From Candidatus Woesearchaeota archaeon (GTDB lineage Archaea > Nanobdellota > Nanobdellia > Woesearchaeales > GW2011-AR9): a stretch of 50,625 bases of DNA. Position numbers and translations under genes: made by a program. This document shows, piece after piece, positions 1 through 50,625 of this stretch. The notes under the pieces are model-generated. The model saw only the letters and a program-made list of their open reading frames with translations, had not been told where the DNA came from and searched no databases. Where the stretch lies: positions 1 to 50,625 of the forward strand of contig JABHWJ010000013.1 of the NCBI GenBank assembly GCA_018657845.1, read 5' to 3'. Every line of letters begins with the position of its first letter. Positions within the stretch are counted from its first letter, which is position 1.

Positions 1-88
1 TGTTATGGTTGTTGGGTAGTGGAAATCAACTAGACAAGTAGACAACCACCATGAAGGTATATAAATGAGGAGATCTTGTTTATGGTTT

Positions 89-910: not shown

Positions 911-947
911 GAACGATTAATTGAAGATTGGAAAAGTCGAAATATGT

Positions 948-1397: not shown

Positions 1398-1492
1398 TTT
1401 TGGTTGTTTTTTGATATTTCTTTTTTTGTCATTCTATTATTTTTTTAAGTTGTTGTTTTTTTGTTTTTGATTTTTTCTTAAATATAAATAAC

Positions 1493-2347: not shown

Positions 2348-2375
2348 TTAAGATTTAGATAAATAGTTTTAGTTT

Positions 2376-4518: not shown

Positions 4519-4584
4519 GAGATTACCTTCGAATATTCTTTATTTTGAAGTTTAAGTATTTATAATGATTTATGTTTTTGAGAG

Positions 4585-5889: not shown

Positions 5890-5910
5890 GAATAAACCCC
5901 CTAGTTGTTA

Positions 5911-5959
<49 letters not shown>

Positions 5960-5990
5960 GGTTATGTTGTTTTGTTGTTGTTAAACTTTT

Positions 5991-6071
5991 ATTAAAAGCA
6001 ATTTGCACGGCCCGAGATGAGTTCTCAAAACAACGAACTCATGGGCCTCCCTTGGCAAAATCGCTTTTAAT
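5991..6071. other. Long imperfect inverted repeat / hairpin of unknown function
   Basis: Nested arms ATTAAAAGC/GCTTTTAAT, TTTGC/GCAAA, GGCCC/GGGCC and ATGAGTTC/GAACTCAT around a 10-nt loop; GC-richer than its flanks. Confidence 0.8.
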
Positions 6072-6090
6072 GTTAGTGAATGTGTCATTG

Positions 6091-7482
6091 TTAATTGAAC
6101 TCCCAAATCTCATTTTGTTCTGAAAGATGAATTCTTTTAAATCTTTCGTTCTTAAAGATGAACAAAAGTCCTTGGTCATGAGGAAGGGTGTTCTGCATTT
6201 GTTCTGTGATGAGGATGTGAGAGATGTGGTGCCTTTCTAAAATTGGGAAGGAAACTGAAGGGTAAGATGAAGAGAGAACTTCTTGAGATAAATAGAATTT
6301 TTCATCATACAAGGGATCATCAAAAGTAAGGAAAGGATCTTTTTGAGAAAAGTATTGGATTAAGTAACTATTTTCAGTGGTAGAAAAAATTTTATCTGGA
6401 GTAAGGATGGGTTGGTCTTTGAGGGCGAGGAGAGTTTCTTCAAGCTCAGGGGTTGGTGAAAGAGTAGAGAGCCGATCTATGCAAGTGAGGGTAGAGAAAA
6501 TTATTCCTAAGATCAGAAGGAAGATAGTAGCGTTTTTGATAATTTGAAGCTTCCATTCTTTGTTGAATAAATAGACAAATCCAAATGTAGCGAAGATTAA
6601 AAGGATGAAGTTGAGATAAATCAAAGAAGAGGTTTGATAGATGTATAATGGGATGAAAAACGGAAGGAAAAAATAAGTGAGATAAAATTTGTTTTTTTTC
6701 CAGGTAATGGTTAATCCAATGATTGCGAGGAGGAAAGCAAAAAGACTAAGTCCAAAGATTCCACCTAAATCTGAGAAAAGATCAAAGAGAATGTTTTGAG
6801 AAAGATAAGGGCCAAGTAAGAATGGTTTTCCTAAAACTAAGTTAAGTGAAGTTAATAAAAAAATCATAATTCCCAGAGGTTTGACGTAATTGTCTTTTTT
6901 TAAGTAAAAGTAAAGAGCAAGGAGTAGTAGAGCTAAGAAGGAACTGAATAAATCGAAGAAAGGAATGAGAAAGAAGGGAATGTAGGAGAGGGATTTGAGA
7001 AATTTGTTTTTGCTGAACAATGCCGAGAATCCAGCGAGGAGAAGGAAGATGAATAATGAGTGATGGGAAAGGGTGGCGAAAGTGAAAATAAATACAGGAG
7101 ATAGGATAATAAACAAAAGGAGGAAGAATTCTTCTTTAAGAGAGAGGTTGAATCGTTTAGTTATATTATTAAGTAAGAGTAAGGAGAGGATTCCTAATAA
7201 TGATGTGAAAATTTGTGCTAAGTAAGGGAAGTGAGGCAGGTAAGAGAAAAGGTGAAGGATTAAGTGGTAAGGGTTTTGCCAAAAGTTACTAAGATTAATT
7301 TGAGTGGCAGAGTAAAGAGGGTGATAAGATGATGTGGAGATGAGGAGATAATTGTGGTTAAGAATTCTAAATAAGAACGGTAAACTTAGAGTTATAATTA
7401 GGAAAAGAGGTAAGTATATTGATTTGTATTTAATCAAGTGTCCTAATACTGTATTTATGGTTTTGTCGGTCTGAGTTGACAT
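6091..7482 (-). CDS. Multi-pass membrane protein, GT-C/STT3-like architecture (possibly degenerate)
   Basis: About 12 TMs plus C-terminal extracellular domain ending in ISHILIT; layout parallels 7455..8957. Confidence 0.55.
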   Translation of the reverse strand: MSTQTDKTINTVLGHLIKYKSIYLPLFLIITLSLPFLFRILNHNYLLISTSSYHPLYSATQINLSNFWQNPYHLILHLFSYLPHFPYLAQIFTSLLGILSLLLLNNITKRFNLSLKEEFFLLLFIILSPVFIFTFATLSHHSLFIFLLLAGFSALFSKNKFLKSLSYIPFFLIPFFDLFSSFLALLLLALYFYLKKDNYVKPLGIMIFLLTSLNLVLGKPFLLGPYLSQNILFDLFSDLGGIFGLSLFAFLLAIIGLTITWKKNKFYLTYFFLPFFIPLYIYQTSSLIYLNFILLIFATFGFVYLFNKEWKLQIIKNATIFLLILGIIFSTLTCIDRLSTLSPTPELEETLLALKDQPILTPDKIFSTTENSYLIQYFSQKDPFLTFDDPLYDEKFYLSQEVLSSSYPSVSFPILERHHISHILITEQMQNTLPHDQGLLFIFKNERFKRIHLSEQNEIWEFN

Positions 7483-8957
7483 CTTACTTTGTAAATATGA
7501 ACTGTGTTGCTATATAATAATTCAAAACATCTTTGGTCAATATAAGGAGGTAATTCTAAATTATAAATAGATTTACTTTGAGGAGAAACTAATAGGTAAT
7601 GAAGGTTATATCTATCGAAAAGACTAATCGCTTGAGTTTGATAAGAGGTGCTGAAAAAAGAATTAAGATGAGAGAAACGTTCATCAATATCTTTGATTAA
7701 AGAAAATTGGGTGTCCATGAAATTTTTTCTTTGGCTAGTGTAGGCTAAGAGGTGACCTTCAGATAGGGAAGTTATTATAGTTGCTTGGGGGTTGGTGTTT
7801 TCTTTAATCCAAGTGAATGCTTTGAGATCTTCATCAGAAGGTGTTTGTTGCTGAAGGGCATAAGTGAAAGAGGGTATGATTGAAGTAATGATAAAAAGGA
7901 TTAAGATGATTATTGGTAAAACTGTAGTCCAACGTTTTATTTTAGTAAAATGAGTTTTTTGAAGATAAGGAGTGAAGGAAGTATACGCTTGGGCGAAGAA
8001 GATAGCTAAAATAAGACCAAAAAACATTAGGGCTAGACGAAATTCAACAAAATTGATGATTGCTAAGAATGCGGTGGAAATTGCTAGGCCAAGGAGGAGA
8101 AAAACATTTTTGTTTTTTTGTTCGAATAAAGATCTGTAAATTGTATAAAGTCCGATAAGGAAAGGAATCACGCCAATTAAGATTAGAGAGTTTAAGATGG
8201 AAATGTTAGGGAAGTATTGATTCATAATTTGAGGGGGAACGTTCTGCCAGATGAAGCTAGGCCCTTCAGTAATGAGAGTTCGTTTAAAGAAAAGAAATTG
8301 GGTCCAGATGAAAAGGAATAATGAGAAAAGAGCAAGTTCTAATTCTGCTTTGTCGGTTCTTTTTTCTTCAAGTTTGGAAAGGAACAAGTAGAAGAGGGTC
8401 CCTATTATTAGTAGGGCTGTGGCAGCACTAGTAAGAGAAAGGATTAAGATAGAGATGATGTAAATGTAATTGAACTTTTTTTCTCTGATTTTCATCAAGG
8501 AGTAAATGGCGAGTAAGGATAATGGGAGGAATAGGGATAATGGAGTGAAGGAATTAGTTTGGAAAAGGATAGGGATGAATGCAGAGATGAAGGCTGCGAA
8601 TAAAGAAGGGTTGTTTTTTTTGGTAATTTGTTTAGCAATGATGAAAATTAAAAAAGGGATTAGGGAGAGTAAGATGTTGGGGAGGAGTTTAGCTACTAGG
8701 TCTAATGGTAAGAATAGATCTAATGAAGCGGAAAGGTAATGAAACGCAGGTAGGAAGATCAGAGTTCTTCCGCCATAGGAAAGCGGGTCATCATAAAGTG
8801 GGAGGCCATGACTGGTTATGTGTTCAACCTGTCTTAGGTGGAAATAAGAATCATAAGTGAAGTTAGAAATAGAGAAGGCGAGGATTAATCTTAACATAAG
8901 AGTAAAGATAATTATAGCCAAAAGGAAGTATTTGGTTCTTTTTTCATTTGTGACCAT
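7455..8957 (-). CDS. GT-C fold membrane glycosyltransferase (STT3/PMT-like)
   Basis: YDSYFHLRQVE and YDDPLSYGGR loop motifs, AFTWIKENT, GHLL; many TMs. Confidence 0.7.
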   Translation of the reverse strand: MVTNEKRTKYFLLAIIIFTLMLRLILAFSISNFTYDSYFHLRQVEHITSHGLPLYDDPLSYGGRTLIFLPAFHYLSASLDLFLPLDLVAKLLPNILLSLIPFLIFIIAKQITKKNNPSLFAAFISAFIPILFQTNSFTPLSLFLPLSLLAIYSLMKIREKKFNYIYIISILILSLTSAATALLIIGTLFYLFLSKLEEKRTDKAELELALFSLFLFIWTQFLFFKRTLITEGPSFIWQNVPPQIMNQYFPNISILNSLILIGVIPFLIGLYTIYRSLFEQKNKNVFLLLGLAISTAFLAIINFVEFRLALMFFGLILAIFFAQAYTSFTPYLQKTHFTKIKRWTTVLPIIILILFIITSIIPSFTYALQQQTPSDEDLKAFTWIKENTNPQATIITSLSEGHLLAYTSQRKNFMDTQFSLIKDIDERFSHLNSFFSTSYQTQAISLFDRYNLHYLLVSPQSKSIYNLELPPYIDQRCFELLYSNTVHIYKVRCQLRPTKP

Positions 8958-9044
8958 GATTTAAGTGAAAAAGAGGTTTTATTTTATAAATATGTAGGGT
9001 TGAGAGTCGAAATGTTTATAATATTTGGTAATTGAGATATTTAA

Positions 9045-37081: not shown

Positions 37082-39109
37082 ATGCATAAAAAGAGGTGTA
37101 TTAGAGATAGGAATAGTTGGGAGAGTAATAAAAAAGGTCAGCTAACAATTTTTATAATTTTAGGAATTGTGCTTATTATTGCAGTTGCTTTGGGATTGGT
37201 TTTATGGAAAGGGACAGCTGTTTTTAAGCCAAGTAAAATATTTCTTTCAGAAAAAGGAAAAGTAGAATCTCAGATAACTTCTTGTATTTCGATTATAGGG
37301 CAGGAGGCTCTAGATATCATCGGGGCAACAGGAGGATATATTGAAATTCCTGATGAGATTTCTAAGGATGGTGGAAGTCATCTTAAACTTTCTCCATTTA
37401 TACTTGTCCCCTATTGGAGTGTGGGGCAATCAAAAAGAATTCCTTCTATAGATTTAGTCAAGGAAAGAATTGATGCATATATGGAATCAAGATTGCCATC
37501 ATGTATTTTTGCACCCTCTGAATTATTTGATGAATTTGATATTGTTGAAAAAGGTCCAGTGGAATCAAATGTTGAATTAGTAGATGGAGGAATTATCTTT
37601 AATGTTCGATATGATCTAGAAGTTAGAAATAAAGATGGATCTGTAGTTACAGAATTAATTGATCACTTAGCAGAATCTGATATTAAACTAAAGAACCTTC
37701 ATGAGATGGCCAGTGCAATAATGGAAGCTGAATTTGAAGAGTTGAAGTTAGAAGATATAACTATGGATTTAATTTCTCTAGAACACCCAAAGGTTCCTTT
37801 AATTGGTTTTGATATGAGTTGTACTAAAAAGAAATGGAAAGTAAATGAGGTACAAAGTACTTTGCAAGATATGTTAAGAGTTAATGTGGGAGAATTAAAA
37901 GTAAGTGGAACAAATTATGTGGAATTTCCAGAAGAACTTCCCTATTATAATACTCATTATGTTTGGAATGTAGGTTTAGAGGATCCAGAAATTACAGTTA
38001 ATCTAAATTATCAAGATGGGTTTCCGTTTTATTTCCAGGTGACTCCAAGTCAAGGAAATACTATGAAAAGTGGAGTTCTAGGGGGACAAAGTTTGTTATC
38101 CTTTTTATGTTTGCAATCTTGGAAGTTTACTTATGATGTGAGTTATCCAGTGATGGTAGAATTAATTGATGATACTACTGGGTATTTGTTTAATATGGCT
38201 TTTACAGTTCATGTGGTGCGAAATCAAGCTAATCGGAATGAAGCTACCACTACAATAAATCCTTCGCTATTAATTGATATTGGGGGAGATAATGAAGTTT
38301 ATTGTGAAGATTATGCTAAAAAACCATTGTTAGTTAAAACGTATGAGTTAATTCAGAATGAAGAAACAGGAATTTCTGACCATAAGCCTTTGAAAGATGT
38401 AGAGATAAGTTATACTTGTTTAAAGTATACTTGTGAGATGGGTGAAAGTGATTACAATTATGCAAAATATGGCGACGTAGCAATTTTAGATGAGATGTTT
38501 CCTTATTGTCCAGGTGCTTTATTGAGAGGAAACAAAGAAGGATACAAAGAAGCAATGGTGAGAGTAGTAACGGACAAGTATAAAGAAGTTGAGTTGAACA
38601 TGATCCCTATTTATTTATTAGATTCAGAGAAAATAAAAGTTGTTAAACATGGGTTTAAAGATCCTTTAACTGGAATTGAGGATGTTGCGGGGGCAGATGC
38701 TTTGGAAAAAGGAGAATTGGCTTCAGTAAAAATAACTAACAAGAAAGGAGGGGAAGTTTTCCACGAAGCAACATATATTTATCGTATGGAGAAAGGAGGG
38801 TTTAGTTTATTAGATCTTAATGAAGAGGATTCAGCAAAAGCTGAAAGTAGTTTAGAGTTATTGGGAGGAACAGATTTCAGTTATGAATTGGAAATTTATG
38901 TTTTTGATGAAACTGATATCAAAGGAGGATATCAAGGAATTTGGGATGTTGATTGGGATTCTTTGAAAAGTGGAGGAGATGTCGTTTTCCATGTATTAGC
39001 TCAAGACTCATGGGATTCCGATGTTGATATGTTTGATTTTGTAGCAAATTTAGATGTGTATAGTTCATATGTAACGGTTCCAACAATCGGGAGCGTAGGT
39101 GAAGAATGA
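37082..39109 (+). CDS. Large exported protein with class III (type IV pilin-like) signal peptide
   Basis: KKG|QLTIFIILGIVLIIAV; CI......ALD.IG..GGY motif; first gene of a coupled operon. Confidence 0.8.
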   Translation: MHKKRCIRDRNSWESNKKGQLTIFIILGIVLIIAVALGLVLWKGTAVFKPSKIFLSEKGKVESQITSCISIIGQEALDIIGATGGYIEIPDEISKDGGSHLKLSPFILVPYWSVGQSKRIPSIDLVKERIDAYMESRLPSCIFAPSELFDEFDIVEKGPVESNVELVDGGIIFNVRYDLEVRNKDGSVVTELIDHLAESDIKLKNLHEMASAIMEAEFEELKLEDITMDLISLEHPKVPLIGFDMSCTKKKWKVNEVQSTLQDMLRVNVGELKVSGTNYVEFPEELPYYNTHYVWNVGLEDPEITVNLNYQDGFPFYFQVTPSQGNTMKSGVLGGQSLLSFLCLQSWKFTYDVSYPVMVELIDDTTGYLFNMAFTVHVVRNQANRNEATTTINPSLLIDIGGDNEVYCEDYAKKPLLVKTYELIQNEETGISDHKPLKDVEISYTCLKYTCEMGESDYNYAKYGDVAILDEMFPYCPGALLRGNKEGYKEAMVRVVTDKYKEVELNMIPIYLLDSEKIKVVKHGFKDPLTGIEDVAGADALEKGELASVKITNKKGGEVFHEATYIYRMEKGGFSLLDLNEEDSAKAESSLELLGGTDFSYELEIYVFDETDIKGGYQGIWDVDWDSLKSGGDVVFHVLAQDSWDSDVDMFDFVANLDVYSSYVTVPTIGSVGEE

Positions 39110-42100
39110 ATACTAAAAAACTGGTGACTTTATTTATCATTATGTTAATGGTAATGCTCCCAGTAGTTTCAGCTGTGGAAATTTCAGAAGTGGTGGTAAG
39201 GGATGTCACTGAAACTGGAGCAACAGTAGAATGGTTGACTGATGAAGAAGCTGATAGTGCAGTTGATTATGGTTTAGATAAAGAAAATTTTTCTAATGAA
39301 ATGAATGAAGAAGAGGTTTTAGAACATTCTGTGGCTTTGGTTGGTTTGGATTCTGGAAGTGATTATTATTTTAAGGTAATGAGTGGTGATGCAGAAGATG
39401 ACAATAGTGGAGATTTTTATTCATTCAAAACTTTAGAAGGAGAGGTTGTTGAGGAAGAAGGTTTTAAGTTAGAGATTGAAGTTCCAGAATATCTTGCAGA
39501 AGAAGAGGTTGATCTTACAGGGGTAGCTTCGGTAGGAAGTAAGGTTAAATTATATCTTGATGGGTTATTAGAAGGGATTGTAACTGTTAGTGAAGAAGGA
39601 ACTTTTGAATTTTTGGAAGTAGATTTGACGAGAAATGAGTGGAATACTTTATTGTTTTTAGCTAAGAGTGGAGAGGAGGAGATTAGTAAGGAGTTTAAGG
39701 TATTTGTAGATCTGAAGGCTCCACAGATAAGTTTGATTGGAGAGGTTCCTGAATTTCTTTTGGAAGCTGAATTAGCTATTAAGGGTAAGATCGGTGAGGA
39801 AGCCCAAGTAGTGGTTTTACTTAATGAACAAGAGGTTTATAATAATAAGACTAGTGAGTTTTTAGTTGATTTAACTTTGGTTGAGGGAGAGAATACCTTA
39901 TTAATTAGTGCAGAAGATTTAGCTGGAAATAAAGAATTTGTAGAAAGAACTATTTTATTAGACATGTCTGCTCCCGAAGTAAGTTTTGATTTTGAAAAAG
40001 GGATGGAATATTATCAAGGGAATGCAGAAACACAGATTTTTGGACAAACAGAAGCAGGAGCAAAATTATATCTTTATTATTTTAAACAAACAGCTTCTGG
40101 AAAAGATCCAGACTTTAGTAGGGCTTTTGGTGAAGCAACTGCCGATGAGAATGGAAGCTTTGTTTTTGACGAAGTAGATTTAGATCACCCGCCTACATTT
40201 ACTTTATTAGAGAAATTAGGCCCTAAACAAGTACCACAAGAATTATTAGAAGTAGAGATTTCTTCTTATGAAGGGGCAGATCAACAAGAAAATTGGATAA
40301 CTTATGTTTATGTTATTGCTGAAGACAAAGCAGGTAGGGTAGGTTATGCAGAGAAAACTATTCAGATTCATTCTTGTTTCTCTGGAGAGTTGAAGTTTAA
40401 TGTTATGCCATTGACTGAATTTCAGTTACCTAGACGTTTGGATCCAGATTTATTAGATGACGGAAGACAGGTTGTTACAATGGTTTTAGATTTAGATTAT
40501 TTGGGACAAGGTCAACCGTTAACAGATGCAAATGGGAATATTATTTCTGAAGGTTTTGAGATTAGTGATATTAATTTTAGAAAAGCTTGTACTCATGGAA
40601 TGATTGATGATGAGAGCACGGCATTAGCTTGTAAGATTTTGCCAGAGACTCCACAGAAAAAAGTTCCTAATGCCAATAAGGATGCTTGGTTTGTTCAATA
40701 TACTTTAAACTCTGCTGAAGATTTTAGTGAAAAGGAAGATGATTTTTGGAATGATTTTAAGAAAAGGCAAGTTGTGTTTCCAATAAAAGCAGAGATAAGT
40801 TATCGAGAAAGATTAGCCCCTGGACAACAAGGTTATAATTCTAATCAATATGGGGGACAACAGAGCCCATATAGTCAATATAGTCAATACAGTGGTTCTG
40901 GAAGTAGTCTTTATGGAGGTAGTAGTTATGGAAGCGCATATGGCAGTAATTATGGTAACAATGTTTATGGAAGCCAATTATATGGTCCTTTGAAAACACA
41001 AACGGTTTGTTTAAATCCTGGTTATTTCGTAGATATTCCAATTGATAGTGAAGATTTAATTCCCGATTGGTTGGCTGATGATGGAGTTAGAATTCTGAAT
41101 AATACAATAGAAACAATTGATACAATAAATGAATATTTGTATGATGCAATGGTTATTGCGGGAGTTACTTGCGGAGCGAGTTTTATATTGAGGATGGCAG
41201 CTAGATGGTATAGGTTATTCCAACAGAAATGGGAACCTTATCTTTCAGAAGCTGAAAAACTTGCTGCGGCAGTAGGTGTAACTACAGGAGAAAAAGGCCA
41301 ATGTCCTTTGGATCAAGGTGGACTATTTGCTGATGACACAATTGCTAATTGGAAGAAGTTACAAAATAGTGATCATGCAGACAAGCAAACAGCTAATTTC
41401 CCAGAAAATTTAGATGATCTTAGTTTGAATCTGAAATTGAATTGTCCAAAAACTGCCAGTGCTTGGAAAATAGAAGATGGAATAGATCAAGTTTTCAAAT
41501 ATTCTTGTTATCGGGTGTTCTGTAAAGCGGCCCCCGCTAGATGGACTGAGGATAAAACAGAAACTAAGGTTCAAGCAACCATATTAAAGGGTCAGAGTTG
41601 TGGAGGAACAACTGGAAAAGGATTACCTCTACAGAAATTAGAAAATTGTGATAAAGAATTTACTTACATGAGTACTTCGTTGGGTTTGAAAGGAATCCAG
41701 CAAACTGGGACTGAAAACTTGAGAGATTGTTGGAAAGGTCCTAATGGAGTAATCTATTTTTATTTTAAGCAGAAGAATACAAATGTAGATGAACGAAATA
41801 AAGGGATATATCATTTAACACCATTAGATCATATTACTGGTTCTTTTGGAGATATTCCTGCAGATGATTTAGTTGTTTATCAACCAAAAGGTTCAGATAA
41901 TTATATTGTGGGGGTAGATGACACTTGTAATAATCTTTGTAAAAGGACTCCTGGATTTGAGGCTTTGAAAAAGGGACAAGGTTTAACTAAAGCTTGTAAG
42001 TTAGAGAAAAAAGACGGTTCTATTGAAGTGAATACTGGAGAATTTACTGCAGGATATACTAAAGATTGTTTTATTAATGAAAAAACAAAAACTTTACAGC

Positions 42101-44526
42101 AGTGTATCTGTGTGGGAGCTGAAGAGAAACAAGAAACTTATGCGGCGAGAACGGCATTAAGGGCGGATGGAAATAATGTCGAAGAGTGGTCTTATCGACA
42201 AGATCGGATTTTCCAAGAATCTAATGAACAACAAGGAACTTATTACCCAAAATGGAGATATTATGGGGGAAGAGATTTCCCAGCTAGTTTTGGTTTAAAC
42301 CATTTATTAGATTATACGCGTCCAGATAATGAGGAGATTGCAGAAGTCAATCCAAATACTCAACATATTGGGGCAGTGCAAAGTTTGTGCATTAGTGGAG
42401 TGTACAATAGGTTAAAATTATTAAGAGACACTTTAGATTATGTGGCACAGTGTATTACTGATGCGAAACATAATAGTATAAATGATGCAGGAATTTGTAA
42501 ACATTTAATGAGTCAATATGTTTGTGGTTTGGTATACAAGATAATTGCATATGCTGCTAAAGGATGTTTACCAATAACTTTTAGTGATGAAGAATCTAAG
42601 GGTAGTTTTGATAAATTAGGAAAAGGAATAGAACTTGGAATTGGTTCTCTTTATGAAACAGTAGATACTTCTTTTGAAGATTTGAAAAGTGAGTTTGGTA
42701 ATGCTAAATTAAATGAATTTGTATCTGGAGGAGTAGAAGGTTTTACTCGATCGGTGTGTATGGCAGCATTGGGTTATGATTGGGTTTTTGATATGGATTT
42801 CTTAATGGATGCAGCTTATGCAACTCCATTTAAGACAACTGCCTTAGTGATACCAGAAAGAGAATTAGTATCTTATGATCCAACTCAGAAATCAGCTATC
42901 TATAGTTATAGCTTGGGAGCGTCATTATTTCCGGGATGTGATATCCGAAGTTGGAATGTTAAATTGAAATGTGTGGGTCCAGAAGACATGGGCAAGCCAG
43001 GAGTAGATTGTACCCAACAAGGCTGTGACTGTGCGAAGATCTCAGGAGCTTCTCCATTCTCTTACGATCGGGAAAGGATAATGGAGGGTGGAACTGGATT
43101 TGATGTAAGTGCCGGAGGATATGCTAGTTTACCTGTACCTTCGCCACAAATTATTACTAGCCAATATAGATATGATCACGTTGTAGTAGAGTTGATGTTA
43201 GAGCAATATGCAGATCCATCGACTTGTTTTGATGAAGGATATTTCACTGGAAATGTAGGGAGATTCTATTTCCCAGTTGTAGAAGTTGGAAGTGAGCCAA
43301 GTGTGGATTGTAATGTTGATTTAGAGTCAGGTAGATTTATTTGTAGTGGGTTGTCTGAGTTTTTTAGTACCGGAGCAGGTTACTTTGAATGGCCATTTGT
43401 GGATTGTGCAAATCAGGAATCGGGAGGGTATGTTGCATGTAATAGTCCAAATGGAATTATAAAAGGAGATCCCTTAATTATAAGACCACACATAACTACT
43501 GATGGGACGCAAGATTTGTGTATGTATATGACTTTAAATGGAGGTCCACAATCAATCACGAAAGTAGGAAAGATTCCTAAATTAAATGTGGGGTCAATAA
43601 GTCCTACTTATTCTTTTAGTCCAAGTTTAGATAATAGTTGGTTTGTGGGAGGGTTAGGAGAGAATATTTTCTTGGACCAGGGAACAAGTAATCTTGGGTG
43701 TAATGATGCACTTGCAAAGGAGAAAACTGGTGATCCAATAAAGTCTAATGGGGTATTTTCTGTATCTTTTACAGGAGGAAGTATTGCTGGAACTTTTAAA
43801 GTGAAGGTGGGTGCGACTGTTGAAACTCCAGGTTATACAAAAAGTGAAGAACTCTTGATTAACCCTGCCAATAGTGGGCAAGATTTTAATGTTAATCAAA
43901 TAAATCAAATACCCTTTGTGGTAGGCGGATATAAAATTAAAAACATTTTGAAGAGTACTTTTGTAGGGCCGAATGGGAAGTGTACTTGGAAGACGCAATC
44001 AGCTAACACTCCTGGGATGCAAACAACTGGGACGAAGACATTAACATTAAGTATGGAATTAAGGTATCCTGGATTGGGAGGAAGTTGCGAATTAGGAGTT
44101 ACTACCAAAATACCAGGTTCACAATTTGGAGTTACAGGACATCAACAACCAATAGTAATTCAGGAATCTAAAATATCTTTGGTTAGCCAAGATGTCCAAG
44201 AAACTTATGATTACTTTTTGGCAGGATCATATGCAGATACTTTTACTCGAGCAATTAATATGGTCCAAGGCAATGAGGGAGGAGAGAAGGAAATCCATGC
44301 TTATTATTTGGCTGTTGCGGCGAGAGTTTTACAAGGGGCAAATCAAGCAGAGAATACAAATCCTAAAGCGTATAAAGATGAAGTTGTTGGTTTGATTACC
44401 CAGTTTGCTAATGAAAATTATGGTCCAGAGATTAAAGGAAGGAATGATTACAAGAAAATAGCTGCGTATATGAAGGAGATTGGGAACGCTTTTGGAGTAA
44501 GTGGGGATATTTTGTCTAAAATTTGA
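39106..44526 (+). CDS. 1806-aa secreted protein: FN3-like domain, Ig-like repeats, Cys-rich body
   Basis: Signal peptide VVSA|VE; ATVEWLTDE..S.V.YG..H.V.L.GL...YYFKV.S (FN3-like); D..AP and EGEN...AEDLAGN Ig repeats; internal hydrophobic segment; ATGA overlap. Confidence 0.85.
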   Translation: MNTKKLVTLFIIMLMVMLPVVSAVEISEVVVRDVTETGATVEWLTDEEADSAVDYGLDKENFSNEMNEEEVLEHSVALVGLDSGSDYYFKVMSGDAEDDNSGDFYSFKTLEGEVVEEEGFKLEIEVPEYLAEEEVDLTGVASVGSKVKLYLDGLLEGIVTVSEEGTFEFLEVDLTRNEWNTLLFLAKSGEEEISKEFKVFVDLKAPQISLIGEVPEFLLEAELAIKGKIGEEAQVVVLLNEQEVYNNKTSEFLVDLTLVEGENTLLISAEDLAGNKEFVERTILLDMSAPEVSFDFEKGMEYYQGNAETQIFGQTEAGAKLYLYYFKQTASGKDPDFSRAFGEATADENGSFVFDEVDLDHPPTFTLLEKLGPKQVPQELLEVEISSYEGADQQENWITYVYVIAEDKAGRVGYAEKTIQIHSCFSGELKFNVMPLTEFQLPRRLDPDLLDDGRQVVTMVLDLDYLGQGQPLTDANGNIISEGFEISDINFRKACTHGMIDDESTALACKILPETPQKKVPNANKDAWFVQYTLNSAEDFSEKEDDFWNDFKKRQVVFPIKAEISYRERLAPGQQGYNSNQYGGQQSPYSQYSQYSGSGSSLYGGSSYGSAYGSNYGNNVYGSQLYGPLKTQTVCLNPGYFVDIPIDSEDLIPDWLADDGVRILNNTIETIDTINEYLYDAMVIAGVTCGASFILRMAARWYRLFQQKWEPYLSEAEKLAAAVGVTTGEKGQCPLDQGGLFADDTIANWKKLQNSDHADKQTANFPENLDDLSLNLKLNCPKTASAWKIEDGIDQVFKYSCYRVFCKAAPARWTEDKTETKVQATILKGQSCGGTTGKGLPLQKLENCDKEFTYMSTSLGLKGIQQTGTENLRDCWKGPNGVIYFYFKQKNTNVDERNKGIYHLTPLDHITGSFGDIPADDLVVYQPKGSDNYIVGVDDTCNNLCKRTPGFEALKKGQGLTKACKLEKKDGSIEVNTGEFTAGYTKDCFINEKTKTLQQCICVGAEEKQETYAARTALRADGNNVEEWSYRQDRIFQESNEQQGTYYPKWRYYGGRDFPASFGLNHLLDYTRPDNEEIAEVNPNTQHIGAVQSLCISGVYNRLKLLRDTLDYVAQCITDAKHNSINDAGICKHLMSQYVCGLVYKIIAYAAKGCLPITFSDEESKGSFDKLGKGIELGIGSLYETVDTSFEDLKSEFGNAKLNEFVSGGVEGFTRSVCMAALGYDWVFDMDFLMDAAYATPFKTTALVIPERELVSYDPTQKSAIYSYSLGASLFPGCDIRSWNVKLKCVGPEDMGKPGVDCTQQGCDCAKISGASPFSYDRERIMEGGTGFDVSAGGYASLPVPSPQIITSQYRYDHVVVELMLEQYADPSTCFDEGYFTGNVGRFYFPVVEVGSEPSVDCNVDLESGRFICSGLSEFFSTGAGYFEWPFVDCANQESGGYVACNSPNGIIKGDPLIIRPHITTDGTQDLCMYMTLNGGPQSITKVGKIPKLNVGSISPTYSFSPSLDNSWFVGGLGENIFLDQGTSNLGCNDALAKEKTGDPIKSNGVFSVSFTGGSIAGTFKVKVGATVETPGYTKSEELLINPANSGQDFNVNQINQIPFVVGGYKIKNILKSTFVGPNGKCTWKTQSANTPGMQTTGTKTLTLSMELRYPGLGGSCELGVTTKIPGSQFGVTGHQQPIVIQESKISLVSQDVQETYDYFLAGSYADTFTRAINMVQGNEGGEKEIHAYYLAVAARVLQGANQAENTNPKAYKDEVVGLITQFANENYGPEIKGRNDYKKIAAYMKEIGNAFGVSGDILSKI

Positions 44527-44554: not shown

Positions 44555-45082
44555 ATGAGAGAAAAAAGAGGGAAGGCGAGGACGATTGTATTGTTATTAC
44601 TATTTTTAATAGTGTTCTTGGTATTGATATATGGTGGTTATTTTTATAAATTAATGGAAAAAGAGAAAGTAGAATTGGACGAAGATTTAGGATTGGGAGA
44701 AGAACCAGATATTGGAGAGGTAACTGATTCTGAGGAGCCTGAAGTGGTGGAAGATGTTTCAGAAGAATCTGAAGAAACTTTAGTCGGATGTAATAAACAT
44801 CTTGAGGAATTAAATTGTGTTAAAGAGGGTTGTTTGTGGGAAAGTGATTTAATTTTATGTTATGATTACGGAGAGATTGAAGAAGAGTGTAGTTTTAGTG
44901 AGAGTGAAAATGATTGTTTGTTGTTTGGTTGTATTTGGAATGAAAAAGATCTTTCTTGTGAGGAATTTGAAGAGACGTCTGATGTTTTAGGTTGTTTTGA
45001 TTTTATTGATAAGCAGAATTGTGAGGCAGAGAATTGTTTTTGGGATGCAATAGAAGAACTGTGTGAGGAAAGAGAAATATGA
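44555..45082 (+). CDS. Membrane-anchored acidic protein with three C-x8-C-x4-C-x-W-x6-C repeats
   Basis: KRG plus TM; repeats CNKH..CLW, CSFS..CIW, CFDF..CFW. Confidence 0.8.
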   Translation: MREKRGKARTIVLLLLFLIVFLVLIYGGYFYKLMEKEKVELDEDLGLGEEPDIGEVTDSEEPEVVEDVSEESEETLVGCNKHLEELNCVKEGCLWESDLILCYDYGEIEEECSFSESENDCLLFGCIWNEKDLSCEEFEETSDVLGCFDFIDKQNCEAENCFWDAIEELCEEREI

Positions 45083-48000
45083 AGAAAGGATTTTTATTAA
45101 TGTTTTTTTTTGGGTTGTTTTTTTTAAGTGCAGGATTAGTTCAGGCAATAATTCCTTATTCAATTTTGGTTCAAGACTGTGATCCGTATATGCTTAGTGA
45201 GACTGGATGTGCTACTAATGATCTTACTGAAGACGTTTATTATTTTTATGATGAAGTGGAGAGGAGTTGGAAGTATCAATTAGACTCTGGACTTACTTTA
45301 GGGACTGGAGAATGGTTAGAATTAAATGAGATCTCTATAGATATACAAGATAATGTTTTTGATCCAGGGATTGAAAGTTGTGGACAACATGATTTTATTT
45401 ATCGTGAATATTGTTGGCTTAATAATTTTTTGATAGAAGCGCATGAAGATTCAATAGAATGGTTGTATGATTCTGAAGAAGCTTATGATCCAGTTTATTT
45501 AGATGGGTTAGATGTAATCTGTAAATGGCATCGACAAGAGGAAATAGATTCTGGACCTTGGTCGCCTGCCACTGGTCTCAACCGCCCATTTGAAGGGAAG
45601 ATTTTTTTTGTTCCTGAATTATTAGAAACAGAATATCCAGTGGAAAAAATATTATATCCTGGGGAGGATTTGGGAGTTGTTACTACTGCGTTTGCATGTG
45701 ATAATTCTCAAATGAAATTAAAACAAGAAGAAGAATTAAATTTTGAATTTTCTAGTTTGGGCCAATATTGTGATTATTCTTTTGAATGCGAAACGGGAGT
45801 TTGTGCAGATGGGGTTTGTTGTGATCAGAAATGTGATTGGGGGTGTTCATCTTGTGCTTCAGAAGGAAACGAAGGATCTTGTGTTCAAAAACCAGAAAAC
45901 ACAACTTGCGGAAATGGTAAAATTTGTACTCTAGAAGGAGAGTGTAAAAAAGAGTTGGGAGTGAAATGTAGTCTAGGAGAAGAGTGTTTAAGTGGTAATT
46001 GCAACAGCGGGGTTTGTTGTAACGTAGAATGTGAAGGTGGTTGTGAGTATTGCAATAAGCCTGGAAAGGTGGGGACTTGTATTTTTAGATATAGTGGTTA
46101 TCCTGGGTTAGATTATTGTCCAGCTGGAGAAGTTTGTGATGGTTATGGTGGATGTAAAGAAGGAAAAGTTGTGTGGTTGGCAAACGAACAAGATGTTCCT
46201 CCGGAAGAAGAGTTCACTGATGAAGTGATTATAGATGATCCCGAAAGTGTAAACTATTTGTGTAAGAATTGTTATGTTACTCCTTATCAAGAAACTGAGG
46301 CGGTTGGAAAGGCATCGGATGGTTTTTTATTGAATGGAGTTAGATTGTTACTCAATGACCCTAGTTCTCCTTATCTATCTGCTAGAAAAAATAATTATGG
46401 TACAATAGAATTAATCAGATCTTTAGAAGCAGCCTCTTGTTATATGAATCAGAATTTTGGGGGAGTAAAATTACAGATAAACGATTTGAGTAAAGAGAAA
46501 GGGGGAGAAATATCTGGACATGCTAGTCACGAGAGTGGGTTGGATGTAGATACTGGAATATTTACTTTTTCTAACGGGAATTTTGAAGGAGAATTAAGTA
46601 AGAAATGTTTATCTGAGATTGTTGTTGAAGTTAATTCTGAAGGAAAGGAAGTGAAGAAAGTTGGTTGTAAGGCGGGAAAGGTTTATGATTCTTTTAATAA
46701 TCCAGAAGCCTTAAGAGCCAATTGGGAATTTTTGAAAAAGTTAAATCAAATTTATGATGTACAATTTATTTTCTTGGATAAAGAATTGATAAATCCAATT
46801 AAAAAATATGCCACTTCTATTGGCGAAGGGCATCTTTGGGGGGAAGTAGGAGGTGTGCTTAAACATTGGCCCAATCACCATCATCATTATCACATCAGAT
46901 TAAAGTGTCCACTTGGAGATAAAAAGTGTAAGGGTGCAGGAGCGGTTAAGGAAACCCCCTGTGAAAGTGTTGATGAAGAAATAAATAATTGTGAAAGCAC
47001 TTTCAAAAAAGAAGGTTTTCAATGTATGTTTAAGGGAAGTGAAGGAGATGCAATTACTTCTGGATGTAAAGTTACAGAAGCATGTTATGGTGGAGAATGT
47101 TGTTCAGCAGGAGATTATTGTTGTCCAATCAGTGGAGAGAAAGGAAAATTAGTAGGGAAAGAATTAGATGAGACCGCAGTAATTGTAGAAAGTTTAGAGT
47201 GGAAAGAAACTAATGTTGAAGGGGCGGATTTGTATATTTATGAAACTCAATGTAAATCTAAATTAAATGAGTTGAATGATAGGGTTGAGGGGATTGTGTT
47301 ACCTAAAGGATTAGCTAAAGAGTCTACCTTAGGAGAGGTATGTGCAGATGCTTCATTTGAAACAATGATAATTGGAAGTCTTCCATATCCGACAAATCTT
47401 AAAAAATGGGAAGATGCAATAAAAGCAGAAGGCTTACCTGGAAAAACATGGATGGGGAAATTAGATTCTAATGGTCCAACTGATGAAAAGTTCATGGAAG
47501 ATGTTGGAAGAGATTCTTTGCTTTTTATTCCATGTACTACTGATTTAAGTCAACCCTTAGAAATATTTTATTTTTTGCATGGAAATAGGGGATTTGGTGG
47601 TCCAAAAGATTTGAATGATTTTAAAACTAGGGCGGCTCCTAAAATTAAGGAAATGGGTTTAGATGGAAGAAATATTATTTGGGTGATTCCGGAATTACCT
47701 TGGTCTTCAGGAGACGAATCTAAGCAAGCGCTAGCTAAAGGAACTGGAAGGGCAATTCCTAAGAGGCAAAAAAGTCTTTTGGCAAAGGGAAATTTGGAAG
47801 GAATAGACTTTGTTCAATTTCATCAAGATATCATGGTGATTATAGAAGAGCTTGAACCAAGTTTTGATGAAAGTTTAGTTACTTATATTTCTATGGCTGG
47901 TCACAGTGCAGGAGGAGCGGCCTTATGGTGGGCAGCAGAAAGTGGGGCTTTAGAAACTTTAGCAGTTAATAAAATAACTTTTTCTGATGCCGATTATTTT

Positions 48001-49017
48001 GGTGGAGCGAAAAAAGTATGGGCGAAGTATTTTGGTGGAGGAAAAGTTCCAGGGGGACTGGGAGCAGAAATTGGAGCAGAATTAAACTTGTTAGTTCAGG
48101 ATCCTAGCAACAGGGGTGCCCATAATCCTACAGCTTCGGCGTTGAGTTTTATTAAAAAATGGAAAGGAAATCTTCCAGATAATATTAATTATGTTCCTTT
48201 AAAGATGAAGCATAGGCCAATTGGGAAATATTCCTTATCTTGGGTTAGTGATAATCCTCCTATTGAGGCTGTAGATATTCCTTATGTCAATAGAGAAATA
48301 ATTGAAGATGGTTCTAAAAAAGAAGTAAAAGTTTATTTTTATTTTCATGGTAATACTAAATCTACCCAGAGTAAGAGTTTTGTAGAAAGTTATGTAGAAA
48401 ATTATGATCTGTTAGAAAATATGGCTGGGTTAGAAGAAAAGACTGGAGAGAAAGGAGTTTTGGTTGTGTTGAAAGGAGCTTCTCCTAACAGTGTGGGAAA
48501 TTCTGGACAGTGGATGAAAGGGACAAGAGGAGATGAATCTTGGTTTAGTTGTTTTTATGATGAAGCTTTAGTGAAGTTAGATGATTTGGGTTTAAAGCCT
48601 ACTTCAATGAGGTTGATGTCTCATAGTGCAGGGGGTAAGGCGATTAGGAATATTGTTAATTCTGGGTTTTTGGGCGAATCGGGATTGTTGCCTTTAGAAT
48701 CTGTATCTTATTATGATTCTTGTTATGGGGGTTGGTGTAGTGATGTTATGGATGAAATTGTGGATGAAGAAGCAGAGATTTTTGCTATCTGGTCTCCAGA
48801 AGGAGCTTCTCCCCAGAATAAGGTTTCAGCATTTAGTTTTTTGACTGGGATGAGTAAGGAAGAAGTGAAAGGAATGAAAAATGGAGATGTATATGAAGGA
48901 AAGGAAGGATTTGAAAATACTGTTTATGCTGTTAAGGTAGAAGAGTCTCATGGAGATGTAGTGAGGAAATGTTTTTACAACTATATTTCTGATGGGGAAT
49001 GTGAGGCGGCTAGTTAA
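45079..49017 (+). CDS. Secreted multidomain hydrolase: Cys-rich repeats, MepA/M74 murein endopeptidase domain, two alpha/beta-hydrolase domains
   Basis: Signal LVQA|II; AVG....G.L.NG, YGT.EL, NDLS..GG, GHASHESGLDVD, WPNHHHHYHIRLKCP....C; then FLHG/GHSAGG/SDA and FHG/SHSAGG/YDS. Confidence 0.85.
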   Translation: MKKGFLLMFFFGLFFLSAGLVQAIIPYSILVQDCDPYMLSETGCATNDLTEDVYYFYDEVERSWKYQLDSGLTLGTGEWLELNEISIDIQDNVFDPGIESCGQHDFIYREYCWLNNFLIEAHEDSIEWLYDSEEAYDPVYLDGLDVICKWHRQEEIDSGPWSPATGLNRPFEGKIFFVPELLETEYPVEKILYPGEDLGVVTTAFACDNSQMKLKQEEELNFEFSSLGQYCDYSFECETGVCADGVCCDQKCDWGCSSCASEGNEGSCVQKPENTTCGNGKICTLEGECKKELGVKCSLGEECLSGNCNSGVCCNVECEGGCEYCNKPGKVGTCIFRYSGYPGLDYCPAGEVCDGYGGCKEGKVVWLANEQDVPPEEEFTDEVIIDDPESVNYLCKNCYVTPYQETEAVGKASDGFLLNGVRLLLNDPSSPYLSARKNNYGTIELIRSLEAASCYMNQNFGGVKLQINDLSKEKGGEISGHASHESGLDVDTGIFTFSNGNFEGELSKKCLSEIVVEVNSEGKEVKKVGCKAGKVYDSFNNPEALRANWEFLKKLNQIYDVQFIFLDKELINPIKKYATSIGEGHLWGEVGGVLKHWPNHHHHYHIRLKCPLGDKKCKGAGAVKETPCESVDEEINNCESTFKKEGFQCMFKGSEGDAITSGCKVTEACYGGECCSAGDYCCPISGEKGKLVGKELDETAVIVESLEWKETNVEGADLYIYETQCKSKLNELNDRVEGIVLPKGLAKESTLGEVCADASFETMIIGSLPYPTNLKKWEDAIKAEGLPGKTWMGKLDSNGPTDEKFMEDVGRDSLLFIPCTTDLSQPLEIFYFLHGNRGFGGPKDLNDFKTRAAPKIKEMGLDGRNIIWVIPELPWSSGDESKQALAKGTGRAIPKRQKSLLAKGNLEGIDFVQFHQDIMVIIEELEPSFDESLVTYISMAGHSAGGAALWWAAESGALETLAVNKITFSDADYFGGAKKVWAKYFGGGKVPGGLGAEIGAELNLLVQDPSNRGAHNPTASALSFIKKWKGNLPDNINYVPLKMKHRPIGKYSLSWVSDNPPIEAVDIPYVNREIIEDGSKKEVKVYFYFHGNTKSTQSKSFVESYVENYDLLENMAGLEEKTGEKGVLVVLKGASPNSVGNSGQWMKGTRGDESWFSCFYDEALVKLDDLGLKPTSMRLMSHSAGGKAIRNIVNSGFLGESGLLPLESVSYYDSCYGGWCSDVMDEIVDEEAEIFAIWSPEGASPQNKVSAFSFLTGMSKEEVKGMKNGDVYEGKEGFENTVYAVKVEESHGDVVRKCFYNYISDGECEAAS

Positions 49018-49019
49018 AG

Positions 49020-49601
49020 ATGAGTTTTAATGTAAGAGGAGTTCCAAGGGTTGTTTTAGTTTTGTTAATTATTGGAGGGCTTGTTTTTTTAAGTGCTTTA
49101 ATCTTAGGAGTTACGAATTTGAGTGGGGCTTCTGGAGGAGAAGGAGATGCACTTCTTTATCAGAATGGTCCGTTCGGTGAAGGATTAGTGTTGAAGAATT
49201 TTCAATGGTGTGATTATGTAGATATTTATTATAGATGTATTAATCCAAGGAGTACTTTTGATGTTCCAGGGAGTGTATCTTTTACTTTAACTGTGGAAAG
49301 TGATGTAGTGAGTGGAGGGGTACAGTTGGTAGAAAATTATGCAATTAAGGATAAAGAAGGAAATTATCATTTAGTGATGGATGAAGCGAATGCTATTTAT
49401 TTTGAAGGGATTAGTTCTGAAGATAAGGATAAAGTTTTTTTTAAGAATTCATTTAGGTTAGAAGAAGATCTTAGCCCGGGAGATTATATTTTGGAGTTAG
49501 AAGTAGAGAATCTTTTGTTTGGGGGAAAGTTGACGTTGGAAGAAGAAATTAGTGTTGAGGAAATTTTACCAGAAGATCCGGCAGGGGTGGAGTACCAATG
49601 A
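49020..49601 (+). CDS. Membrane-anchored single Ig-like domain protein
   Basis: RG plus hydrophobic N-terminus; beta-rich with PGDYILELEVEN strand. Confidence 0.7.
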   Translation: MSFNVRGVPRVVLVLLIIGGLVFLSALILGVTNLSGASGGEGDALLYQNGPFGEGLVLKNFQWCDYVDIYYRCINPRSTFDVPGSVSFTLTVESDVVSGGVQLVENYAIKDKEGNYHLVMDEANAIYFEGISSEDKDKVFFKNSFRLEEDLSPGDYILELEVENLLFGGKLTLEEEISVEEILPEDPAGVEYQ

Positions 49602-50625
49602 AAAGATTATTCTGGATTTTGATGATTGTTTTAGTTATGTTTGGTGTTCAAGCACAAGTGGCACCTATTTCTGGAGGGGGGAGTAATGATCCTGGTGTGC
49701 CCCAAGTTGTTTTATCTGGAGATATATTGCAAGATTGTCCGCATTTAGATTTTAATAGCCACAGTAATTCGGAGGCTGTGGGGAAACAATCAGCTGGAAG
49801 TTTGGTTAGTGGAGTGAAGTTACCAGATAGATCTTATTTTAATAAGAATTGGCAATCTTCCAACAATGACGAGCAATATGGGACGATAGAATTAGTAAAT
49901 ACTTTGGAGTTAACTGCTTGTTATATGAATTTGATGTTTGAATCTACTCCTCTTAAAGTTCATGATTTGAGTGTACAAAATGGTGGAAAATTGAATCCAC
50001 ATAAAAGTCATCAGAATGGTTTGGATGTCGACGTGGGATTTTATTTATATGAGGGAACTAGTAATTATGTTAATGTTTGGAAAGAAATGTGTGATCGGGA
50101 GGGAGAGGGAAAAAATTGTTATGCTGCAGGCACTGGTAAATATAATGTAGATCTTCAATTCTTACATCCAGATTCTTTAACGACCAATTGGTGGTTTATT
50201 AAAACGCTAATTAATGTTTATGATGTTCGAGCCATTGCTTTTGATCAAGTTTTACAAGATGTTTTGGAAACTCATGTAAGGGATGTTTTAGGTGAGGGAG
50301 AAGCATGGGATAGACATAAACCCTTGTTTGCTAAATGGCCTGGACATCATGATCATTATCATATTAGGTTGAAATGCCCAAAAGGAGATTTGCACTGTGA
50401 GGGAAGTAAAGCAGAGAAGAATTTTCCAGGAGAGGGGTTTGTAGATCCAGGAGTTCCATCACAAGAGCTTGCGGAGCAGAATACACAAACAACTGGACAA
50501 CAATTACCTGGAGAGCAAACTACTACGGGAGCCTCACCAATTGGAGGGAGTACCCAAGGAGGAGTACAACAATCAACAATTCCTAATTGTGCTTATTGTC
50601 AGAAAATAGATAGTTCTTGGTTAAA
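49598..50625 (+). CDS. Secreted protein with N-terminal MepA/M74 murein endopeptidase domain (3'-truncated by window)
   Basis: Not in ORF track; translated by hand: MKRLFWILMIVLVMFGVQA|Q...SEAVGKQSAGSLVSGVKLP...QYGTIELV...HDLSVQNGG.LNPHKSHQNGLDVD...WPGHHDHYHIRLKCPKGDLHC; no stop before window end. Confidence 0.88.
   Translation, partial: MKRLFWILMIVLVMFGVQAQVAPISGGGSNDPGVPQVVLSGDILQDCPHLDFNSHSNSEAVGKQSAGSLVSGVKLPDRSYFNKNWQSSNNDEQYGTIELVNTLELTACYMNLMFESTPLKVHDLSVQNGGKLNPHKSHQNGLDVDVGFYLYEGTSNYVNVWKEMCDREGEGKNCYAAGTGKYNVDLQFLHPDSLTTNWWFIKTLINVYDVRAIAFDQVLQDVLETHVRDVLGEGEAWDRHKPLFAKWPGHHDHYHIRLKCPKGDLHCEGSKAEKNFPGEGFVDPGVPSQELAEQNTQTTGQQLPGEQTTTGASPIGGSTQGGVQQSTIPNCAYCQKIDSSWL

Follow-up and report, generated by a model that had tools for sequence, protein, structure and literature searches.

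The window analysed here, a stretch of 50,625 nucleotides (contig JABHWJ010000013.1) from a Candidatus Woesearchaeota archaeon, carries near its right end a gene for a 1312-residue protein. This protein combines a signal-peptide-like N-terminus, Cys-rich modules and a Peptidase_M74 domain with two tandem serine alpha/beta-hydrolase-like domains, termed D1 and D2. The features of the gene, all on the + strand, are as follows.

45079 to 49017, + strand: whole gene, 1312 amino acids, with signal-peptide-like N-terminus, Cys-rich modules, M74 and two alpha/beta-hydrolase-like domains (open reading frame list and translation)
45079 to 45147, + strand: signal-peptide-like N-terminus, residues 1–23, MKKGFLLMFFFGLFFLSAGLVQA (judged by eye from the sequence)
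45763 to 46173, + strand: Cys-rich repeat region, residues 229–400, with 26 of the protein's 54 Cys and no Pfam match
46300 to 46956, + strand: Peptidase_M74 (MepA-like murein endopeptidase), residues 408–626 (Pfam PF03411, E 3.1e-16)
47359 to 48261, + strand: D1, first alpha/beta-hydrolase-like domain, residues ~761–1061 (family profile match; AlphaFold2 model residues 1–246)
47578 to 47583, + strand: D1 His-Gly, H834 (47578 to 47580) and G835, proposed oxyanion-hole turn directly behind a strand
47905 to 47907, + strand: D1 candidate nucleophile S943 in G-H-S-A-G-G, directly after a strand and conserved in the family
47986 to 47988, + strand: D1 candidate acid D970, directly after a strand and conserved in the family
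48211 to 48213, + strand: D1 candidate base H1045, four residues past model strand 219–224 and conserved
48316 to 48975, + strand: D2, second, diverged alpha/beta-hydrolase-like domain, residues ~1080–1299 (jackhmmer row P0003/1080-1299; AlphaFold2 model residues 245–488)
48346 to 48348, + strand: H1090 of the D2 His-Gly pair H1090 G1091 (codon check on the translation)
48625 to 48627, + strand: D2 candidate nucleophile S1183 in S-H-S-A-G-G, after a strand and invariant in alignment A4
48715 to 48717, + strand: D2 candidate acid D1213, after a strand and invariant in A4
48949 to 48951, + strand: D2 candidate base H1291, five residues past model strand 465–469 and invariant in A4

The initial annotation had described tandem serine alpha/beta-hydrolase domains behind an M74 domain on an exported chain, and all eight motifs quoted in it occur in the translation of 47530 to 49014 (+ strand), namely YFLHGN, GHSAGG, FSDA and KHRP in D1 and FYFHGN, SHSAGG, YYDS and ESHG in D2. 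Across the entire 1312-residue protein, the motif [GS]xSxG occurs just at the two elbows. The proposed architecture was borne out by the predicted fold, the homology of D1 and D2, the conservation of the HG, Ser, Asp and His positions, and the PF03411 match, which scores 60.1 bits (cut-off 25) and covers profile positions 1–201 of 240. Against the NCBIfam equivalog PRK09429, the M74 domain reaches 63 bits, below the cut-off of 272; we therefore regard it as a family member and not as a MepA orthologue. The chain also looks exported, as had been proposed, given that its N-terminus resembles a signal peptide. A protein identical to this product (P0003) is found on 4 contigs of the public collection. 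Additionally, a second Cys-rich module (residues 631–760, 46996 to 47358) contains 10 Cys and has no Pfam match, and the open reading frame just before the gene (44555 to 45082) encodes a 175-residue protein that is acidic and Cys-rich with a hydrophobic segment at its N-terminus. The Cys-rich modules and the 175-residue protein may be disulfide-stabilised binding modules.

Relatives were collected by an exhaustive phmmer search of 1.84 billion representative sequences with the C-terminal part of the protein as query. The search returned 130 representative clusters at E ≤ 1e-3, with 70 at E ≤ 1e-10 and 13 at E ≤ 1e-30; some match the D1 half and others the D2 half. When the halves were compared separately with these relatives, 114 matched D1 and 43 matched D2, and in 22 single-domain proteins of ~300 residues both queries matched the same stretch. 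Similarly, hhalign aligned A3 (D1-type and stand-alone sequences, 16 rows) with A4 (D2-type sequences, 14 rows) at 98.1% probability (198 columns, E 8.6e-14), and FHG, HSxGG, D-A/C-Y-G and the late His fall into register. Because of the common matched stretches and the profile alignment, D1 and D2 are diverged copies of one domain. Profiles were needed to detect this homology, since direct BLASTP of D1 against D2 gave only a single 59-residue segment around the nucleophile elbow (~31% identity, E 0.005). Such divergence suggests that the two copies differ in specificity. The tandem pair thus stands as described in the initial annotation, but the start it gave for D1 does not: the domain begins ~57 residues earlier, because the profile matches run from 47359 (47359 to 48261) and a conserved N-terminal segment in A3 precedes the old start. 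Two copies of the domain occur in 6 of the 133 family proteins, and the pairing of a D1-type with a D2-type copy is seen elsewhere only in P0004, where an M15_4 domain lies between the copies.

The most conserved columns of the jackhmmer family alignment (140 rows, 133 proteins) are those flagged by the motifs. The H834 column is His in 126 of 129 rows, and the G835 column is Gly in 119 of 129. At the nucleophile elbow, the S943 column is Ser in 119 of 138 rows and Gly in 14, while G945 is Gly in 137 of 138. The D970 column holds Asp in 121 of 135 rows, plus 8 Glu, and the H1045 column holds His in 100 of 107. Other conserved positions of the family are N865 (125 of 133), Y973 (123 of 135) and a P-E-L-P-W-S loop. 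Among the 97 rows spanning all four columns, 81 keep the full set of His, Ser, Asp or Glu, and His. In particular, both copies in the 1312-residue protein retain all four residues. Ser, Asp and His are invariant in the 14 of 14 rows of A4 (S116, D146 and H224 in A4 numbering), with the His of the HG turn variable among D2-type rows, and the invariant positions of A3 include H17, G18, S126, D153 and H228. Conserved Cys are a further feature of D2-type domains.

The structure of residues 818–1312 (495 residues; model residue 1 is residue 818) was predicted with AlphaFold2 from the 30-row alignment A2. In the 47-row A1 and two other trial sets, MAFFT had aligned all relatives to D1; A2 was chosen because in it the D2-type sequences fell on D2. 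The mean predicted local distance difference test score (pLDDT) of the model is 82.6, with 232 residues at 90 or above and 159 at 70–90 (391 of 495 at 70 or above). Both halves of the model show the strand-helix alternation of an alpha/beta-hydrolase, and DSSP placed the candidate residues as follows, in model numbering.

His-Gly turn: D1 strand 10–16, then H17 G18; D2 strand 264–272, then H273 G274
Nucleophile Ser: D1 strand 117–125, then S126; D2 strand 355–365, then S366
Acid Asp: D1 strand 148–152, then D153; D2 strand 389–395, then D396
Base His: D1 strand 219–224, then H228; D2 strand 465–469, then H474

Structure prediction, which the initial annotation had named as a check, thus gives an alpha/beta-hydrolase fold for both domains with the candidate residues at strand ends or no more than 5 residues from them, and the annotation's placement of the acid after the strand that follows the nucleophile strand agrees with the DSSP assignment. 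Of the hallmarks of the alpha/beta-hydrolase superfamily, the model has the fold, a Sm-x-Nu-x-Sm-Sm elbow right after a strand, and a His after the last core strand. The acid does not occupy the canonical position after beta7, as D970 and D1213 both follow beta6. An acid at the post-beta7 position is not conserved in the family either (D1008 in 23 of 62 rows). The position after beta6 is a known variant in pancreatic lipases.

We compared the model with 48,161 representative chains using VIA-align, and 304 chains matched at Z ≥ 8. The best 50 of these 304 are all alpha/beta-hydrolases, and sequence identity to the fold matches is 7–18%. For D2, the best match is the feruloyl esterase 8bbp_A (Z 13.6, root-mean-square deviation (rmsd) 3.1 Å, 193 aligned residues), and further matches are the CE1 enzyme 7b5v_A (Z 13.1), 3wyd_B (Z 13.1), FrmB 7l0a_A (Z 12.5) and antigen 85A 1sfr_A (Z 11.8). 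For D1, the serine hydrolase YjfP 9bd4_B is the best match (Z 12.2, rmsd 3.6 Å, 194 aligned residues), and further matches are IroE-like 3gff_B (Z 11.8), the lipase 6nkc_B (Z 11.6) and Tle4 4r1d_A (Z 10.4). The best rows of a Foldseek search (E 2e-3 to 1e-2) are mostly lipases and esterases as well. Alternatively, the motifs could have arisen by chance in a C-terminal region that is unstructured or unrelated, given that GxSxG-like motifs are short and common and that a single-sequence AlphaFold2 run on residues 818–1312 was unusable (mean pLDDT 34.9). This reading is ruled out, with only a negligible residual probability, by the 130 clusters at E ≤ 1e-3, the column-wise conservation, the model at pLDDT 82.6 and the fold matches at Z > 12. 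Collectively, we consider it highly probable that D1 and D2 are homologous alpha/beta-hydrolase-fold domains, and probable, judging from the model and the conserved columns, that their candidate Ser-Asp-His triads are catalytically competent.

At the sequence level, the domains connect to one known family in particular. PF00756 (Esterase) matches 10 of the 90 shorter relatives at E ≤ 0.01, and 4 distant relatives of ~300 residues reach its gathering score of 22 bits (P0087, 29.2; P0082, 24.5; P0113, 24.0; P0114, 22.7 bits); a few of the 90 also give weak matches to Abhydrolase_6. The D1 and D2 queries themselves are not PF00756 members, with no match at E ≤ 1. A profile search of the PDB with A1 gave 34 weak matches, 31 of which are named as alpha/beta-hydrolases or esterases, and the nucleophile elbow lies within the three alignments shown. 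In the ESM Atlas, residues 772–1066 lie nearest to unannotated bacterial clusters of ~270 residues (0.97; Myxococcota and Pseudomonadota), and the nearest named cluster (0.91) has PF00756 on 28% of its members. Both the fold and Pfam place carboxylesterases of carbohydrates and small molecules nearest to D1 and D2, which makes ester hydrolysis their most likely chemistry.

Several results weigh against assigning D1 and D2 as ester-cutting enzymes. The C-terminal 495 residues have no Pfam or NCBIfam match at E ≤ 1 and no PDB sequence match by phmmer at E ≤ 10; PHROG matches number 0 of 11 (D1, D2 and 9 relatives, E ≤ 0.01), and NCBIfam matches 0 of 14 (D1, D2 and stand-alone relatives). The best match of the PDB profile search is insignificant (E 0.037), and none of the Foldseek rows from the PDB reaches E ≤ 1e-3, with rmsd values of 7–10 Å for the two-domain model. 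The AlphaFold2 alignment is shallow at 30 rows and contains some residues that are not homologous, drawn from the additional domains of multi-domain relatives, and the predicted template modelling score of 0.56 leaves the mutual arrangement of D1 and D2 open. Moreover, the catalytic role of the acid is putative, because its position after beta6 differs from that in the closest structural neighbours. Ester hydrolysis is also not the sole possible chemistry, because serine carboxypeptidases, acyltransferases and thioesterases are also found among the fold neighbours. Finally, 16 of the 97 rows lack part of the four-residue set, and 12 of these lack the Ser (9 Gly, 2 Arg, 1 Asp), several of them also the His; the fold can therefore persist without catalysis.

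This loss of the Ser, together with the fold neighbours Ag85A (1sfr_A, Z 11.8), MPT51 (1r88_B, Z 11.3) and a mycoloyltransferase (6sx4, Z 11.4), bears on whether one or both domains might be non-catalytic, as binding or scaffold modules derived from hydrolases, or might be acyltransferases like antigen 85. As both copies and 81 of the 97 family rows keep the four residues, and Ser, Asp and His are invariant in A4, we judge a non-catalytic or acyltransferase role improbable for the 1312-residue protein. The Ser-less subgroup itself (P0053, P0060, P0071, P0079, P0086, P0098, P0102, P0107, P0122 and others) carries Gly, or Arg or Asp, at this position. Several of its members have VanY, P0060 and P0102 combine VanY with a muramidase, P0107 and P0122 have no Pfam match, and several are without the His. 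These proteins are likely pseudo-enzymes or binding modules.

The domains fused to the family were then counted, with M23, M74, M15_4/VanY/M15, SLT, muramidase, amidase_2/3 and glucosaminidase taken as peptidoglycan-hydrolase domains. Such a domain is present in 68 of the 130 relatives scanned: 39 of the 90 shorter relatives at E ≤ 0.01 (32 at or above the gathering score) and 29 of the 40 longer relatives at E ≤ 1e-4. Among relatives of at least 500 residues, 66 of 90 are fused to one. The scan covered neither P0012 nor P0018, and precomputed annotation gives SLT for P0012. Other fusion partners are metallophosphoesterase, GDSL lipase, beta-lactamase-like, C39-like and type IV secretion system (T4SS)-pilin domains. 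With most long relatives joined to peptidoglycan hydrolases, the context of D1 and D2 is consistent with an attack on bacterial envelopes.

The same partners bear on an alternative in which D1, D2 or both are alpha/beta-hydrolase-fold serine peptidases or amidases that trim peptidoglycan stem peptides or wall-linked proteins and so widen what the M74 peptidase can cut, instead of cleaving esters. Peptidases (M74, M23 and M15/VanY) are the commonest fusion partners, serine carboxypeptidases occur among the fold neighbours (1ac5_A, Z 11.1; 1ysc_A, Z 10.8; cathepsin A 7kdv_B, Z 11.4), and a Peptidase_S9 cluster is among the named neighbours in the ESM Atlas (0.90). In contrast, carboxylic esterases hold the top ranks among the neighbours and provide the sole Pfam links (CE1 feruloyl esterases, FrmB, EstA and PF00756), and the peptidase fold matches rank lower and come from much larger proteins. 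We therefore consider peptidase or amidase activity unlikely, although less so than a non-catalytic role, and retain ester hydrolysis as the preferred chemistry.

A search for related loci with A3, using one genome per species, confirmed 11 loci, 10 in archaeal metagenome-assembled genomes (MAGs) and 1 in a Patescibacteria MAG. The archaeal loci are labelled Woesearchaeota or Nanoarchaeota/Nanoarchaeia in 7 cases, 'archaeon' in 2 and 'uncultured archaeon' in 1, and a Methanosarcinales MAG is counted within the ten. The elbow and an SDxxY motif are kept in 11 of 11 loci and the HG pair in 10 of 11. M74, SLT or M15_4 was found in 7 of the 8 locus proteins scanned, all from the named archaeal MAGs, with the Patescibacteria locus (L010) left out. 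In L010 (3165 to 7109), one in-frame stop under table 11 interrupts the frame that surrounds the domain match; it may reflect recoding, a frameshift or a broken gene. Within the phylum sample, the domain is present in 10 of 301 genomes, and in 8 of 36 within the window's own family; this patchy distribution is accessory.

The organism and the surroundings of the gene are those of a small archaeal genome (0.86 Mb, 44 contigs, 89% complete). The window, with a G+C content of ~35%, carries archaeal genes for TFIIB, GatD, a RadA/Rad51-type recombinase, TYW3 and PAC2, and relatives of the 1312-residue protein bear Woesearchaeota or Nanoarchaeota labels. On the + strand, the GC skew is strongly positive (0.2–0.48) over most of the window, including positions 1–9000, where the long open reading frames are on the - strand; it is ~0 at 20–26 kb and 30–34 kb alone and does not simply track gene orientation. 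The gene itself lies among co-directional, tightly packed or overlapping open reading frames (37082 to 39109, 39106 to 44526, 44555 to 45082, 45079 to 49017, 49020 to 49601 and 49598 to 50623), whose products are large and secreted-looking. The last of these adds one further feature.

49598 to 50623, + strand: second M74 protein, cut off at the contig end (Pfam PF03411, E 9.7e-18)

The M74 domains of this product and of the 1312-residue protein are 37% identical. By BLASTP, the truncated product is identical at 327 of 342 positions (96%) to P0045, a protein of 704 residues with a D2-type domain at residues 456–699. Because this near-identical relative carries such a domain, the locus probably has a third hydrolase-domain copy just past the contig end. 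Of the 10 related loci searched, 3 (L003, L004 and L009) have a homologue of the 1806-residue secreted protein (39106 to 44526; 32–34% identity) immediately upstream of the gene with the hydrolase domain, and L002 gives a weak match. Homologues of the 193-residue product (49020 to 49601) lie near the domain-bearing gene in L003, L004, L005 and L009. A giant surface protein, a small protein and a wall-hydrolase/esterase protein are thus a recurring Woesearchaeota cluster.

This setting also raises the question of whether D1 and D2 act on the archaeon's own surface, remodelling or de-acylating S-layer glycans or surface proteins, rather than as antibacterial weapons. The locus lies among large secreted proteins without an assigned role (the 1806-, 675-, 175- and 193-residue products), and the upstream homologues of the 1806-residue protein point in the same direction. 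The fusion partners, in contrast, are overwhelmingly murein-specific, while these archaea, by textbook knowledge, have no murein. Furthermore, the patchy spread (10 of 301; 8 of 36) fits accessory, conflict-type genes, as is argued for archaeal peptidoglycan hydrolases in the main text of PMC12352652. An own-surface role accordingly appears a poor prospect compared with a bacterial target.

Weighing these observations, we favour with moderate confidence a reading in which this is a secreted multi-enzyme protein of Woesearchaeota (DPANN) aimed at bacterial envelopes, composed of an M74 peptidase and two alpha/beta-hydrolases that would cut esters. The M74 domain, as an LAS-type endopeptidase, would cut peptidoglycan cross-links. 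In D1 and D2, the catalytic apparatus would consist of the His-Gly turn after beta3, the Ser elbow after beta5, the Asp after beta6 and the His after the last strand, and would hydrolyse a carboxylic ester on the bacterial envelope through the serine nucleophile. Candidate targets would be O-acyl (O-acetyl) groups on peptidoglycan, esters on teichoic acids or other wall polymers, and ester-linked lipids. O-acetylation protects peptidoglycan from lytic transglycosylases and lysozymes. As murein and ester-linked core lipids are both absent from archaea of this group, the producer should itself be immune. Whether D1 and D2 act on an ester of the bacterial envelope is, in our estimate, an even call, and O-acetyl peptidoglycan, a teichoic-acid ester, a lipid and a peptide are equally conceivable as the substrate.

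A bolder extension is that the new family is a standard module of an envelope-breaching toolkit common to host-dependent DPANN archaea and Patescibacteria. Joined to murein hydrolases and encoded beside a conserved giant surface protein, the domain would act there as a lipase or phospholipase (or as a wall de-acylase). Once the wall has been breached, it would free bacterial ester lipids for scavenging by the lipid-auxotrophic cells, which their ether lipids and murein-free surface would protect, and the two copies on one chain would provide two specificities. We hold this extension to be doubtful. If the domain is an esterase or lipase, one protein would attack two layers of the bacterial envelope, with neither chemistry harming the producer. 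This yields a specific hypothesis, open to experiment, on how very small host-dependent archaea kill bacteria or feed on them. The family is sizeable, with 130 clusters, a candidate Ser-Asp-His triad and an alpha/beta-hydrolase fold, and it carries no Pfam, NCBIfam or PHROGs annotation; it would also be a new source of enzymes to screen for antibacterial or lipolytic activity.

Among known systems, the SGNH/GDSL type of O-acetyl-peptidoglycan esterase (Ape) was considered and rejected, as the query has no PF13472 or PF00657 match and its fold is that of an alpha/beta-hydrolase; the relatives P0040, P0034 and P0085 carry a separate GDSL domain beside the family domain. The CE1/esterase D type (PF00756: feruloyl esterases, FrmB, S. 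pneumoniae EstA and antigen 85) resembles D1 and D2 in the nucleophile elbow and the late His. It supplies their best fold matches (8bbp_A, 7b5v_A, 7l0a_A, 1sfr_A and 2uz0_A, the last at Z 11.8) and the sole Pfam family that their relatives reach at gathering score (4 of 90). In contrast to this type, the D1/D2 family has its own P-E-L-P-W-S loop and D-A-x-Y motif, and its acid lies 27–30 residues after the Ser, behind beta6, whereas the esterase D and Ag85 types have the acid after beta7.

Lipase effectors of the type VI secretion system (T6SS; Tle1 and Tle4) are antibacterial alpha/beta-hydrolase (phospho)lipases delivered along with wall-degrading effectors. Such lipases are among the fold matches (6sjl_E, Foldseek E 2.6e-3; 4r1d_A, Z 10.4 for D1), but the matches are much weaker than those of the CE1 type, the effectors are injected rather than exported by a signal peptide, and no sequence similarity was detected. 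The pancreatic-lipase family (PF00151) has an Asp after beta6, ~24 residues past the Ser, together with HG and GHSxG motifs. Its likeness to D1 and D2 would lie in motif spacing alone, and there is no Pfam match; lipoprotein lipase 6oau_A gives a weak Foldseek row for the model (E 9.6e-3).

In function, the closest analogues are the T6SS lipase effectors and mycobacteriophage LysB, a mycolylarabinogalactan esterase that works beside the peptidoglycan hydrolase LysA (PMC7022511 and PMC8309991). In the phage pair as in the 1312-residue protein, an alpha/beta-hydrolase esterase would be paired with a peptidoglycan hydrolase in breaching the bacterial envelope. LysB and LysA differ from the 1312-residue protein in being separate phage proteins with mycolata as targets. 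LysB is not among the best 50 of the 304 fold matches, although its fold may still be similar, and the PHROG matches are 0 of 11 (E ≤ 0.01).

Related in biology are the secreted murein hydrolases of Nanoarchaeota and Woesearchaeota, which Strock et al. 2025 (PMC12352652) and Vigneron et al. 2022 (PMC9723730) interpret as antibacterial weapons. These recently recognised, likely antibacterial peptidoglycan hydrolases of DPANN archaea would be one part of a larger toolkit. The main texts of both papers contain neither 'esterase' nor 'lipase', and that of PMC12352652 contains neither 'M74' nor 'MepA'; the alpha/beta-hydrolase module is therefore not described in them. A literature search on secreted Nanoarchaeota esterases and murein likewise returned nothing relevant. 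Collectively, neither the fold nor the chemistry is new; what is new here is the unannotated alpha/beta-hydrolase family and the multi-enzyme architecture in which it occurs.

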